From: Candidatus Micrarchaeia archaeon
GTDB lineage: Archaea > Micrarchaeota > Micrarchaeia > Micrarchaeales > CABMGC01
NCBI GenBank assembly: GCA_049976845.1
Contig: JBMFHL010000003.1
Location: forward strand, 1 to 39,347
Direction of reading: 5' to 3'
DNA: 39,347 nt
This document shows, in pieces, positions 9,340-18,233 of the stretch (position 1 is the first letter of the stretch; the number at the start of each line of letters is the position of its first letter). The position numbers were made by a program, and so were the translations under genes. The notes below the pieces were generated by a model that saw nothing but the letters and a program-made list of their open reading frames with translations, did no database searches and had not been told where the DNA came from.

Positions 9340-9577
9340 TGTGGCGTGCGGGTGGCTAACCCTCATTTGCAGGGAGGAAGCTCTTCCCACGCAGAGCACG
9401 TGTGGCTCAAGGCCTTATTCGGAGCAGAAACGGGATTGCCGCACTGCATAAAGCGATGACAAGACGAGCGCAGTGGCGCAAGTGAAACGTTCCGATGCGC
9501 GTGCGATGAGCGTGCAAGGCGCAAAGCCGCTTAGTCGAATGCCACCTAAAACAGAAGGAAGGCTACGGCACGCCACA
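9340..9577 (+). ncRNA. rnpB: RNase P RNA, reduced archaeal form (about 238 nt)
   Basis: P1 TGTGGCGTGC/GCACGCCACA, P2 GGTGGC/GCCACC, CR-I GAGGAAGCTCTTCC, GCAGAAAC, GTGAAACG, GTGCAAG, CTTAGTCGAATGCC, CR-V AACAGAAGGAAGGCTA. Confidence 0.93.
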
Positions 9578-15705: not shown

Positions 15706-17130
15706 ATGGTTAGTGGCCGGGAAGACCTACTGGAAAAGATAAAGACTGATGGTGTAGAATTCATTGACCTTCAAGTCATAGATTTAAGGGGAAAGCTCAA
15801 CCACATAACTGTTCCTTCTTACAGCTTAACAGATGAGTCCTTTTCAGAAGGGCTTCCGAAGCTCGATGGCTCTTCGTTGCGTGGCTTCAAGGAAATTTAC
15901 GAATCTGACATGGTGCTGATGCCAGATCCCTCAACCTACGCAGTATTGCCCTGGGCCAAGGACCCTGCATACAAGACTGCAAGGCTAATGGCATTTGTGC
16001 TTGAAGACAACGGCAGAAGGAGCTTCTCAAGGGATCCTAGATATATAGCAGCTAATGCTGAATCATATTTGAAAGAACATGGCTACAGTACATCTTACTG
16101 GGGCCCTGAGCTGGAGTTCTTCATATTCGACAAGGCAAGATGGAATACAAACTTGAGGTATCGCGAGACAAGTTCTTATTACAAGATCTATTCATCCGAG
16201 ATAGAAAACCCTGTGAACTACTCCTTCAGGCCGAAGGAAGGCTATTATCCCACTGAGCCGCACGACAGCCTGTCAATGCTAAGGGGCGAGATGTCAATCA
16301 TTGCGAAGAAGAGCTTTGGCATAGAAGTAGAGGCGCACCACCACGAGGTGGCAAGCGGCGGCCAGTCAGAAATAGACATAAAATATAATACCTTGCTCAA
16401 GCAGGCGGACAATCTGGCAACGCTTAAATATGTTGTCAAGAACGTCGCGGCAAACAACGGCAAGGTTGTCACATTCATGCCCAAGCCCCTCTTTGGAGAC
16501 AATGGCTCTGGCTTGCATGTGCATACAAGCTTTTGGAATGGCAGCAAGAACGAGTTCTACGATGAAAACGACAGCTATGCAGAGCTGAGCCAAACCGGCA
16601 GATATTTTGTCGGCGGCTTGAAGGAGCACAGCAGAAGCCTTACGGCAATAGTCGCGCCTACAACAAACTCTTACAAGAGGCTCGTGCCAGGATTCGAGGC
16701 GCCTATATTCATAGCCTGGAGCAAAGGGAACAGGAGCGCCAACATAAGAATACCAGTATACTTCAAGTCAAAACCCACTGCGAAGAGGGTTGAGTTTAGA
16801 ACCCCTGACCCAAGCTGCAATCACTATTTTGCTTTTGCAGCAATGCTGCTTGCAGGATTAGACGGCATAAAGAAAAAGATAGATCCAGGGGATCCTGTAG
16901 ACGAGAACATATATAAACTCTCCCTTGAGAGGAGGAAGGAGCTAGGCGTTGAGGAATTGCCTCGCAACCTGTTCGAAGCGACAGAATCGCTGCGCTCCGA
17001 TAACGAATACCTCAAGCCTCTTTTCGAGAGCGAATTAATAGAGTGGTTCATAAAAAGTGAGTCAAGCGACCACATAGCTGTCGAAGGCAGGCCAACGCCG
17101 CACGAGTTCTACTTGTATTTCGACCTCTGA
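15706..17130 (+). CDS. glnA: Glutamine synthetase type I (beta-like insertion)
   Basis: DGSS, ESDMVLMPD, GPELEFF, HHHEVASGGQSEI, TFMPKPLFGDNGSGLHVH, NSYKRLVPGFEAP, NRSANIRIP, RVEFRTPDPSCN. Confidence 0.97.
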   Translation: MVSGREDLLEKIKTDGVEFIDLQVIDLRGKLNHITVPSYSLTDESFSEGLPKLDGSSLRGFKEIYESDMVLMPDPSTYAVLPWAKDPAYKTARLMAFVLEDNGRRSFSRDPRYIAANAESYLKEHGYSTSYWGPELEFFIFDKARWNTNLRYRETSSYYKIYSSEIENPVNYSFRPKEGYYPTEPHDSLSMLRGEMSIIAKKSFGIEVEAHHHEVASGGQSEIDIKYNTLLKQADNLATLKYVVKNVAANNGKVVTFMPKPLFGDNGSGLHVHTSFWNGSKNEFYDENDSYAELSQTGRYFVGGLKEHSRSLTAIVAPTTNSYKRLVPGFEAPIFIAWSKGNRSANIRIPVYFKSKPTAKRVEFRTPDPSCNHYFAFAAMLLAGLDGIKKKIDPGDPVDENIYKLSLERRKELGVEELPRNLFEATESLRSDNEYLKPLFESELIEWFIKSESSDHIAVEGRPTPHEFYLYFDL

Positions 17131-17198
17131 AAGCGATAAATGATCATCTCTCTTGCCATTGGCAAATATACCTATTCTATTCAGATTCCAAAAAGGTT

Positions 17199-17319
17199 TG
17201 GCGGGGGCGAGAGTCGAACACGCGACCTCTAGATTTCTTAGCAATCATCGCATAAATGCTCATCACTCATAAAGCTAAGCATATGAGTCTAGCGCTCTAA
17301 CCAGCTGAGCTACCCCGCC
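17199..17319 (-). tRNA. tRNA-Met(CAT), probably elongator, with a 47-nt canonical 37/38 intron (17235-17281)
   Basis: Reverse strand: GGCGGGG TA GCTC..GAGC G CTAGA CT CAT A [intron] A TCTAG AGGTC GCGTG TTCGACT CTCGC CCCCGCC A. G1-C72 and no GGG/CCC anticodon stem argue against initiator; Ile2 is not strictly excluded. Confidence 0.9.
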
Positions 17320-17429
17320 ATGCAATTGCATGCAGCAATAAACAACTAATAAACAACCAATAAACAATGTATAAATTTTCAAGCTAAAGCTATAAATATA
17401 TTCTATCGCTGTATCTGTTTGGTGGTTGC

Positions 17430-18233
17430 ATGCAGGTAGTGGAGCCGAAAGTGTATCTTATTGCAGAAACAAAAATAATAGAAAGCGAGCTCAAGAGCGC
17501 CCTCAGGGACATAGGCGGAGATATCGCGCTAAAGTGGTATAACAATACCTCTTCTACTAGAAAGTCTGACGGCGAATACATAACAGAGGTCGCAGGCAGG
17601 ATCTGCTACAAGAGCTTCGGATTGGGCTTGAACCCTAACGTGACTAGAATAAGGGAAGATTCGCAGGAATACATCTCAAATACACTGTCTAAGGGCGACG
17701 GCTCCATATTTGAGCATGCAACATGCACATTCGCTTTCATAGATGTGAGCAGGGTTTTTACCCATGAGCTTGTCAGGCACAGGGCAGGTGTAGCAATAAG
17801 CCAGGAATCGCTAAGGTATGTAAGGCCAAGCGAACAGGGAATTGGATTCTGGCTGCCAGAAGGCATTGAAAGTGAAAGAAAGACAAAAATAATAAGCATA
17901 GTGGAAAATATAGAAAAAGGCTACAAAGAAATCGTAGACGAAGCAGGTTTTGAAGGCAAGGACTTCAAAGAAAAGAAGGAGCTGACCTCGCTGCTTAGGC
18001 GCATTCTTCCGCAGGGCATGGCGACTAACATAATATGGACTGCGAACCACAGGACTATAAGGCATGTCATAACAATGAGGACAAGCGAGCAGGCAGAGAT
18101 TGAGATACGAATGGTCTTCGACAAGGTTGCGGAGATAATGAGAAGCAGATACCCCCTCATCTATGCAGATTTCGAGCCAACAGAATTAGAGGACGGGACA
18201 AAAGCCTGGAAGCCCAAATATGTAAAAGCGTGA
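17430..18233 (+). CDS. thyX: Flavin-dependent thymidylate synthase
   Basis: AGRICYKS, SIFEH, SRVFTHELVRHR-x7-S (RHRAGVAISQESLRY), AEIEIR. Confidence 0.95.
   Translation: MQVVEPKVYLIAETKIIESELKSALRDIGGDIALKWYNNTSSTRKSDGEYITEVAGRICYKSFGLGLNPNVTRIREDSQEYISNTLSKGDGSIFEHATCTFAFIDVSRVFTHELVRHRAGVAISQESLRYVRPSEQGIGFWLPEGIESERKTKIISIVENIEKGYKEIVDEAGFEGKDFKEKKELTSLLRRILPQGMATNIIWTANHRTIRHVITMRTSEQAEIEIRMVFDKVAEIMRSRYPLIYADFEPTELEDGTKAWKPKYVKA

Follow-up and report, generated by a model that had tools for sequence, protein, structure and literature searches.

The elongator tRNA-Met intron of Micrarchaeota as a probable single-kink-turn box C/D-type guide for C34 of its own tRNA

RESULTS

An intron that resembles a guide for the tRNA that carries it

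The window analyzed here is a stretch of 39,347 nucleotides (nt) from a Candidatus Micrarchaeia archaeon (GenBank assembly GCA_049976845.1, contig JBMFHL010000003.1, positions 1 to 39,347), and the assembly it belongs to has 52 contigs, 0.73 Mb and a completeness of about 90%. On the minus strand, at 17319..17199, the window holds an elongator tRNA-Met(CAU) gene with a 47-nt intron. We conclude that the intron of this precursor is probably a built-in box C/D-type guide, with a single kink turn (K-turn), for the wobble base C34 of its own tRNA. A preliminary description of the window had proposed such a minimal guide, and the proposal is supported by the conservation of the intron, by covariation, by the N+5 register (in which the target pairs with the fifth guide base upstream of the box), and by the methylation proteins encoded in the same genome.

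The tRNA was identified by Rfam (RF00005, 55.9 bits) and by reading the sequence. ARAGORN called no tRNA at 17199-17319 in its default mode, and with the intron option it called a tRNA-Ser(cga). This is a miscall, as the sequence reads as an elongator-type tRNA-Met(CAU). Because of the intron architecture, tRNA finders miss or mislabel this gene. The 5' exon is at 17319..17282 and the 3' exon at 17234..17199. From the sequence and from homologous introns, the intron lies between positions 37 and 38 of the tRNA (17281..17235); a junction at 36/37 is equally possible from the sequence, and the spliced product is identical. The anticodon stem is CUAGA/UCUAG, and the loop reads C32 U33 C34 A35 U36 A37 ... 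A38, with C32 at 17287, C34 at 17285, A37 at 17282 and A38 at 17234. CCA is not encoded, and a T-run follows the gene at about 17193-17189. It is the only gene on its strand in the gap between plus-strand open reading frames (ORFs) at 15706..17130 and 17430..18233. Immediately upstream, three tandem copies of UUGUUUAUU(G/A)G are present on the minus strand at 17331-17365, and two more TTTATA-like words are found further upstream at about 17370-17395; together these may be repeated TATA-like promoter elements.

The elements listed in the preliminary description were each found at their positions in the sequence. UUAUGAGU at 17272..17265 is the exact complement of A31-A38 in the spliced anticodon arm; by our own arithmetic, the chance of an exact 8-mer complement in a 47-nt intron is about 6e-4. 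This element is followed by a D-like AUGA at 17263..17260 and a C-like GCGAUGA at 17251..17245, and G17268, the fifth base upstream of AUGA, pairs with C34. In the unspliced transcript, the 12-nt guide GCUUUAUGAGUG (17275..17264), which lies between a hairpin loop and the D'-like box, faces a target strand at 17279..17288 made of A31 C32 U33 C34 A35 U36 A37 and the intron bases U G C. The target strand is drawn from the RNAalifold consensus, the single-sequence minimum free energy fold and pair counts. Guide position 1 (G17264) is unpaired, positions 2 to 8 pair with A31-A37, and position 5 pairs with C34. Seven contiguous pairs (A31-A37) are followed in the window by a U.U mismatch and one bulged U, and then by two G-C pairs. 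The guide thus has the length and target complementarity of archaeal C/D small RNAs (sRNAs), in which guides measure about 10-12 nt, with 12 nt and C34 opposite the fifth nucleotide. As in tRNA-Trp-type intron guides, the duplex crosses the exon-intron junction, and it shows compensatory changes.

A permissive Rfam search of 17150-17370 found the intron covered by no curated family. Its sole C/D match was to sR12, at chance level (9.7 bits, E = 9.4). The sequencing runs listed for 16700-17800 comprised five DNA runs, of which the best contained a 0.40 share of the sequence words, and no RNA run.

The putative guide, its spacing, and its boxes are conserved

A similarity search with the whole gene as the query found an intron-bearing tRNA-Met in 55 of 61 related genomes, which make up three families of one order, at 75-96% identity. 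Among the relatives with a completeness of at least 90%, this was true for 40 of 41. The six relatives with no match have completeness values of 79-93%, and no intron-less copy of the gene was detected by this search among the 61. Homologous introns were obtained at 54 loci from 53 related genomes, plus the window's own assembly. We aligned 51 distinct sequences of the anticodon arm and intron, collected by similarity and not by motif, in 69 columns. The antisense element, the spacing and the boxes are all conserved in this order-level alignment, for which the consensus is CUAGA-CUCAU-N37 / UGC-nnn-GCA-N'-(n)-AUGAGU-n-nnGA-GC(n)-loop-(n)GC-nRU-GA-tail-nRAG-AA / A-UCUAG. C32-U36, UGAGU, both GA dinucleotides, the GC/GC of the small stem, and UGA show no variation among the 51 sequences. 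AUGAGU is found in 49 of the 51 (the exceptions are one GUGAGU and one UUGAGU). Since the alignment is ungapped from AUGAGU to the first GA, all 51 sequences keep the N+5 register.

The order of elements is the same throughout: a 12-nt antisense element, a single unpaired base, nnGA as the D-like box, a GC-closed hairpin that covaries, and nRU-GA. The nnGA with the stem forms the non-bulged strand, and the stem with the 3-nt nRU bulge and GA forms the bulged strand, which at the level of sequence is the signature of a box C/D-type K-turn. In archaea the consensus boxes are RUGAUGA for C and CUGA for D, and they form a K-turn with tandem G.A pairs. In the window, the D'-like box AUGA (17263..17260; GA invariant in 51/51) is the non-bulged strand. 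The C stem and loop, GCA-UUUA-UGC, follow at 17259..17250 with an invariant G-C and C-G and a covarying third pair, and the C'-like box GAUGAUU (17249..17243; UGA invariant in 51/51) comes next. G17246.A17260 and A17245.G17261 would be the sheared pairs. The 3-nt bulge is G-A-U at 17249-17247, U17244 stands opposite U17262, and U17243 pairs with A17263. A pyrimidine opposite a pyrimidine beside the GA pairs is a further part of the K-turn signature. In a phylum-wide set of 123 distinct sequences, a pyrimidine precedes the first GA in 113 and follows the second GA in 101, both at positions that the search pattern left free. The 3-nt nRU bulge is present in 123/123, with the pattern partly fixing it for 72. 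As judged from these features, the intron hairpin would qualify as a box C/D K-turn. Within the order, neither another guide nor another box follows the C'-like box, so the dual-guide feature (C34 plus position 39) is absent. In most sequences of the order, the tail after the C'-like box is 7-11 nt long and supplies a strand of the splicing fold.

To place the intron in the phylum (Micrarchaeota, DPANN), we used a strict pattern (GACUCAU, 9-19 nt, UGAGU, NNN, GAGC) and, as a control, its reverse. The pattern was matched in 197 of 401 genomes and the reversed control in 0. In the window's order the tallies were 61/82 for family f1, 81/94 for f3 and 1/1 for f2. Elsewhere they were 7/9 for f7, 10/30 for f4, 8/76 for f9 and 0/21 for f11. 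These tallies take in the unpublished genomes G050 and G215, and no conclusion depends on either. A BLAST search with the tRNA-Met gene against five distant genomes of the class (from f4, f6, f7, f9 and f11) returned fragments only. A scan for the intron motif in one genome per prokaryotic species found at least 119 stretches. Among the matches listed, the titles are nearly all Candidatus Micrarchaeota, Micrarchaeia, Micrarchaeales, Anstonellales or Fermentimicrarchaeum, with a few metagenome-assembled genomes labeled Aenigmatarchaeota, Marsarchaeota or Nanoarchaeota. Among the 119 listed, 103 parse as a tRNA-Met anticodon arm plus intron, and 7 resemble tRNA-Met with a 3' stem that the parser did not find. 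The other 9, with no tRNA context and, where a title is given, a bacterial one, we read as chance matches. The element is also carried by a cultured Candidatus Micrarchaeum strain (locus L100).

Some genomes hold unusual copies. Seven (G033, G209, G294, G328, G352, G353 and G395) have two intron-bearing tRNA-Met motif copies on different contigs, and in several of these the copies are identical or nearly so. In another genome, a second tRNA-Met copy (L055, G031 C29:23368-23524) lies about 1.2 kb from the intact gene (L037). It begins within the intron hairpin loop and extends through the K-turn and the 3' exon, and it looks like a repeat left by an integrated element with an attachment site that reaches into the intron. 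In a distant family (L214, G102 C2, around 274357-274387), the guide and K-turn are as in the Met intron and are followed by a 15-nt spacer, a consensus CUGA and the 3' exon. Upstream of the anticodon loop, this locus is unlike a normal tRNA 5' half, and it may represent either a longer form with two boxes or a gene that is split or permuted.

Covariation supports the guide fold, and the conserved target is the precursor

RNAalifold, unaided, predicts the guide fold as the consensus of the order-level alignment. In this fold 97.3% of cells pair, compared with 92.3 +/- 0.5% in shuffles, of which 0 of 500 reach 97.3%. When the partners were slid by 1-3 columns, only 19-38% of cells paired. Double-sided changes occur in 7 of 17 pairs (38 cells). 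The informative changes are those between N37 and its partner (AU 38, GC 4), at the first base of the intron (UA 37, AU 5, GC 4) and in the third K-turn stem pair (AU 25, CG 9, UA 6, UG 2). No covariation is possible in the five pairs C32-U36, since the sequence of the anticodon loop does not vary. In the phylum-wide set, 96.4% of cells pair, 86 cells have double changes, and the third stem pair is again variable (CG 33, AU 31, UA 7, GC 4). As UGAGU, GAGC, GC and UGA are set by the search pattern, independent evidence in these sequences comes from just the extension helix and the inner stem pair.

We compared pairing of the guide to the unspliced and spliced forms of the tRNA. Pairing to the unspliced precursor reaches 10-11 bp in 44/51 sequences when one bulged guide base is allowed. 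Contiguous pairing to the spliced tRNA is 9 bp in 19/51, 8 bp in 8/51 and only 5-7 bp in 24/51, the last because the base 5' of AUGAGU varies freely. Thus, the unspliced pairing is kept while the spliced pairing is often short, and the conserved target is therefore the precursor.

The guide fold competes with the splicing fold

An archaeal bulge-helix-bulge (BHB) has two 3-nt bulges at the splice sites, with a 4-bp helix between them. In the BHB splicing fold of this intron, the central helix would be formed by C32-A35 with the four bases before the final AA/A. Its 3' strand is at 17242..17234 in the window: GC (h'), UAAG for the central helix, and the bulge A A / A38. The preliminary description had noted that this BHB is imperfect, and indeed the CUCA/UAAG central helix carries a C34.A mismatch. 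Across the alignment the central helix is 75.8% paired (C32-G in 50/50, U33-A/G in 50/50, C34 in 22/49 and A35 in 28/49). The consensus of this strand is UAAG in the window's family and either CGAG or AGAG in the sister family, and judged by it one central-helix mismatch appears to be present in each sequence. The bulges U36-A37-U and A-A-A38 can form, and the motif would be a relaxed one. In the window's family, the outer helix of the BHB can form between the conserved GC (17242-17241) and intron bases 2-3; in the sister family, reading the alignment by eye, this outer helix would need the C'-like box itself.

The preliminary description had also seen a closing stem, CUUAGC (17279..17274)/GCUAAG (17242..17237). 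The two strands are complementary in the window, but the stem is peculiar to it, and we rejected it as a conserved element. The close relatives L002, L003 and L007 have GCUAAGC on the 5' side, which is of the same sense as the 3' GCUAAG and not its complementary strand. Within the family, UUGCUAAG on the 3' side belongs to the BHB as its 3' strand.

As drawn, the guide fold and the BHB fold are mutually exclusive. The guide fold of the window is predicted at -12.6 kcal/mol, compared with -6.7 kcal/mol with the BHB pairs enforced. For L034, of the sister family, the values are -11.0 and -10.9 kcal/mol, respectively. The switch between splicing and modification that had been suggested from the closing stem is thus plausible, but the competitor of the BHB would be the guide-target helix and, in the sister family, the C'-like box as well. 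From the two folds we reasonably infer an order in which modification would come before splicing. ARMAN-type endonucleases with broad specificity are on record (PMC3239211); that report, on the ARMAN-2 enzyme, makes no mention of tRNA-Met, tRNA-Trp, box C or methylation.

The genome encodes fibrillarin, L7Ae, and a short Nop5

Genes for fibrillarin, Nop5 and L7Ae, on which a C/D guide would depend, are all present in the window's own assembly. Fibrillarin is of normal length (223 amino acids [aa], 257.6 bits). An L7Ae-family protein is encoded by a 169-aa ORF (88.6 bits), and a second family member is also present. The Nop-domain protein, Nop5, has 268 aa (185.6 bits; C15:11681-12484, minus strand; L057:1471-2277), and an A+T-rich spacer lies upstream of its gene. 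Residues 19-261 align to 128-373 of Sulfolobus Nop5 (3id5_A), and the N-terminal domain of about 125 residues is lacking. In archaeal Nop5, this is the domain that holds fibrillarin. A Nop5 homologue is found in 61/61 genomes sampled from the class, with the best match starting at residue 1-11 of the short protein, except in G063, G065 and G281, where the match is split into two pieces. The open frames are mostly 257-320 aa, and two longer ones in f3 genomes (391 and 408 aa) are probably over-extended. Thus, a short Nop5 without the N-terminal domain appears to hold across the class.

A search of the assembly with the Pfam NOP5NT model gave no match, with the limit that the model misses archaeal controls too. 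The ORFs upstream of the fibrillarin and Nop5 genes were considered as a source of the domain and rejected: they have no Pfam, PDB or homologue matches, and they resemble antisense frames. We then predicted the fold of the short Nop5 together with fibrillarin. The pair scored 0.80, compared with 0.00 for the best control; that mark is reached by 51 of 78 solved complexes and by 2 of 108 mismatched pairs. At least 97% of contacts are common to the runs, the partner pLDDT (predicted local distance difference test) is at least 90, and the contact is at Nop5 residues 5-24. Fibrillarin is therefore predicted to bind the short Nop5, although the score may reflect likeness and not binding because such complexes have already been solved.

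C/D sRNAs and the tRNA-Trp intron of the same genome

Pattern scans of the assembly also found four candidates for canonical C/D sRNAs. The sRNA at C7:3318-3376 (plus strand) reads GUGAUGA, 12 nt, CUGA, a GC-closed hairpin, GAUGA, 15 nt and CUGA, and its C'/D' motif is hairpin-closed, a form it has in common with the motif of the tRNA-Met intron. The candidate at C23:8559-8606 (plus strand) begins 5 nt after tRNA-Gln(UUG), with which it may form a dicistronic tRNA-sRNA unit. A third, on the minus strand of C1 at about 72650-72700, has a D guide complementary to CACUCAAGAUCC, which resembles the Leu(CAA) anticodon arm; this roughly 90% complete assembly revealed no gene for tRNA-Leu(CAA), and we claim no target for this sRNA. 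The last is on the minus strand at C14:12821-12875. These canonical sRNAs have two motifs each, unlike the one-motif Met intron, and their spacer length is the same as that of the 12-nt Met guide.

We found no stand-alone tRNA-Met guide in the assembly. Of 14 matches to ATGAGT-NNN-GA, only the intron adjoins C/D-type boxes, and 4 matches to TGAGT-N-CTGA revealed no tRNA-Met guide beside boxes outside the intron. The hairpin pattern alone is loose, with 40 matches in the genome compared with about 17 in shuffles. On the sense strand of tRNA genes, the K-turn hairpin is found only in Met and Trp.

The tRNA-Trp(CCA) gene (C11:118-265, minus strand; loci L179/L182) has a 75-nt intron, which we compared with those of 30 relatives (loci L183-L211 among them), one of them from the unpublished genome G050. 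In the window's assembly and in 30/30 relatives, a D box is followed by a GC-closed hairpin and a C box, these by a 12-nt guide with a further box, and these in turn by a short loop and AUGAAG. The D box is UUGA in 21, AUGA in 8 and GUGA in 1, and the C box is RUGAUGA in 23/30. A G paired with C34 is the fifth base before nnGA in 20/30 and before nnAA in 8/30. The 5' 12-14 nt of the intron are the would-be D guide, and AUGAAG is C'-like. Judged by this layout, these introns read as a circular permutation of the classical tRNA-Trp guide, and the excised intron, if circularized, would gain the box order of a normal C/D sRNA. By eye, the tRNA-Phe and tRNA-Thr introns of the assembly also hold short complements of the anticodon loop.

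Elsewhere in the window, an archaeal RNase P RNA was identified at 9340-9577 on the plus strand (Rfam, 87.8 bits, narrowly over the gathering score of 84); it is short, with 238 nt of sequence compared with 288 positions in the model.

DISCUSSION

As far as can be read from the letters, the tRNA-Met intron has the K-turn signature, the guide length and the N+5 register of box C/D guides, and the genome encodes the matching protein set. The intron lacks the two-motif layout of archaeal C/D sRNAs and the dual guide of the tRNA-Trp intron. We infer that L7Ae would bind, that a ribonucleoprotein (RNP) would assemble on a single K-turn, and that methylation would take place in cis and before splicing. 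In the proposed mechanism, the 12 nt upstream of the D'-like nnGA would pair in the unspliced transcript with the anticodon loop of the same tRNA and with the bases that open the intron, giving a hairpin of about 10 bp. The D'-like box and the C'-like nRUGA box, joined by the short GC-closed stem-loop, would form the K-turn. L7Ae would bind it, and Nop5 and fibrillarin would assemble next. Fibrillarin would then 2'-O-methylate C34, opposite the fifth guide nucleotide from the box. As the guide helix would hide the 5' splice site and occupy the bases of the BHB central helix, the RNA would have to refold to the relaxed BHB before the endonuclease could cut, so that methylation would precede splicing.

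Several observations weigh against a methylation guide. The boxes of the window are degenerate (AUGA for the consensus CUGA, and AUGAUUG for RUGAUGA). Both the window's intron and the 51 order-level sequences have a single motif, with no terminal C/D pair, whereas canonical archaeal guides have a terminal C/D and an internal C'/D' motif with about 12 nt between them on each side, and both motifs are often needed in vitro. In most sequences the duplex has one bulged guide base, 3-4 bp past the target site. The window itself is atypical in its U.U mismatch and bulge, which leave 7 + 2 pairs, and A31 must give up U39 or the duplex is one pair shorter. The single-sequence fold of the window is unexceptional (z = -1.61; 14 of 200 shuffles fold as well), so the case against chance rests on conservation and covariation. 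About half of the phylum genomes searched are without the strict motif (f9 and f11, for example). Finally, the Nop5 of the assembly, and apparently that of the class, lacks the N-terminal domain.

We therefore weighed other explanations. The intron could hold an L7Ae-binding K-turn beside an anticodon-intron helix that serves only in folding, protection or control of splicing, with no methylation. For example, the pre-tRNA could be held in a splice-incompetent state, or L7Ae could be recruited as a chaperone. L7Ae has other RNA partners in archaea, and the lone K-turn with its degenerate boxes, the missing classical fibrillarin-binding domain of Nop5, and the mutually exclusive guide and BHB folds, about 6 kcal/mol apart in the window, are all in keeping with such a role. 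However, a purely structural helix does not account for C34 at exactly N+5 in all 51 order-level sequences, nor for the same register in the tRNA-Trp intron, whose guide role is established in other archaea. The guide has the 12-nt length of the genome's canonical sRNAs, fibrillarin is retained and is predicted to be bound by the short Nop5, and C34 of tRNA-Met is a known C/D target (PMC4033218, PMC6601510). On balance, a K-turn with no methylation seems improbable to us. We give hardly any credence to the proposal that the antisense element is ordinary anticodon-intron pairing for the BHB and that the boxes are chance words in an A+U-rich intron. The complements in the tRNA-Phe and tRNA-Thr introns and the looseness of the hairpin pattern would fit it, but the BHB strand is a separate, weaker stretch at the 3' end of the intron, and the internal antisense, its spacing and the K-turn are kept across the phylum with covariation. 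The restriction of the sense-strand hairpin to Met and Trp also speaks against it.

A further possibility is that the guide acts only in trans, with the excised and probably circular intron, perhaps as a dimer of two, forming an RNP that acts on spliced tRNA-Met or on another pre-tRNA-Met. Without any bulge, A31-U39 of the spliced tRNA can be matched by the consensus guide AUUAUGAGU, and the sequences with 9 or 8 contiguous bp were counted above. The RNP of the tRNA-Trp intron is reported to act in trans (PMC7994747, PMC4090602), and archaeal tRNA introns circularize (PMC12558985). The short pairing of the other 24 to the spliced tRNA argues against this, as does the longer pairing over the unspliced junction, which covaries with N37 and the first intron base. 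We consider action in trans alone unlikely; the weight we give it overlaps with that given to the built-in guide because it is a variant of that reading and not an exclusive alternative.

How does the proposed built-in guide compare with known systems? The tRNA-Trp intron guide of Euryarchaeota was reportedly described by Clouet d'Orval in 2001, Bortolin in 2003 and Singh in 2004. In Pyrococcus and Haloferax, Cm34 and Um39 (the 2'-O-methylated C34 and U39) of tRNA-Trp are made by this intron-borne C/D guide (PMC7994747, PMC4090602, PMC4033218). As there, the Met guide lies in the intron of its own target, would address C34 by the N+5 rule, and forms a duplex over the exon-intron junction, and the guide and splicing folds must alternate. 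Unlike the tRNA-Trp intron of about 65 nt, with C/D and C'/D' motifs and two guides (for C34 and U39), the Met intron has one K-turn and one guide, is 47 nt long in the window and 34 nt in the shortest relative (L054), and its K-turn is hairpin-closed on the D-to-C side.

For tRNA-Met, the sR-tMet of Haloferax volcanii and other haloarchaea is said to be about 75 nt long with two motifs, and the title of its description (Joardar 2011) reportedly names the intron-containing precursor as the substrate. A C/D RNP with this separate sRNA produces the Cm34 found in the elongator tRNA-Met of haloarchaea (PMC4033218, PMC6601510). The same modification by a C/D RNP is proposed here, but sR-tMet is separate and acts in trans whereas the Micrarchaeota guide is part of its substrate. 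In human elongator tRNA-Met, C34 is the methylation site of the SNORD97/SCARNA97 C/D RNP (Vitali and Kiss 2019, PMC6601510); the target is the same, but this snoRNA/scaRNA acts in trans and is encoded in mRNA introns.

The preliminary description knew of no C/D-type intron in tRNA-Met. Such an intron had already been reported in Nanoarchaeum equitans, where the 66-nt intron of elongator tRNA-Met was seen as a stable, abundant RNA (Randau 2012, Genome Biol 13:R63, PMC3491384); it contains C and D box elements and was described as "potentially guiding RNA methylation". It shares with the intron studied here the elongator tRNA-Met, a DPANN host, the C/D elements and the proposal of a methylation guide. 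Compared by its description only, it differs in its 66 nt, its consensus box D, its box C with one change and its 6-bp GC hairpin, and the accessible part of the report gives neither a target nor conservation. Our literature search found no C/D-type tRNA-Met intron beyond that of N. equitans and nothing on a Micrarchaeota tRNA-Met intron guide or on a single-K-turn form; most subscription journals were outside its coverage, so this is no proof of absence. Intron-borne C34 guides and a C/D-type tRNA-Met intron are thus already known, and what is new is the single-K-turn form.

Half-mer box C/D RNAs, which have a single K-turn, are used in structural work. They share with the Met intron one K-turn and one guide, but they are laboratory constructs, whereas the intron would be a natural form, joined covalently to its substrate. 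It is conceivable, and we put it forward tentatively, that Micrarchaeota have a natural half-mer C/D RNP. In it, a 34- to 47-nt one-K-turn guide would act in cis with a Nop5 that lacks the classical fibrillarin-binding domain, and the intron would be a checkpoint that allows the endonuclease to cut only after the modification RNP leaves.

If the proposed built-in guide is correct, it would rank as the smallest C/D-type guide in nature and the first to have a single K-turn, and it would bear on whether archaeal C/D RNPs need two symmetric motifs. The RNA of about 120 nt and three small proteins would make a simple system for the order of modification and splicing through alternative folds. Our data, the tRNA-Trp intron and the report on N. 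equitans together suggest that intron-borne guides for wobble methylation are commoner in DPANN archaea than annotated. The guide would also give a functional reason for the retention of the tRNA-Met intron across a phylum of genome-reduced archaea, in which it would replace a separate sRNA gene.

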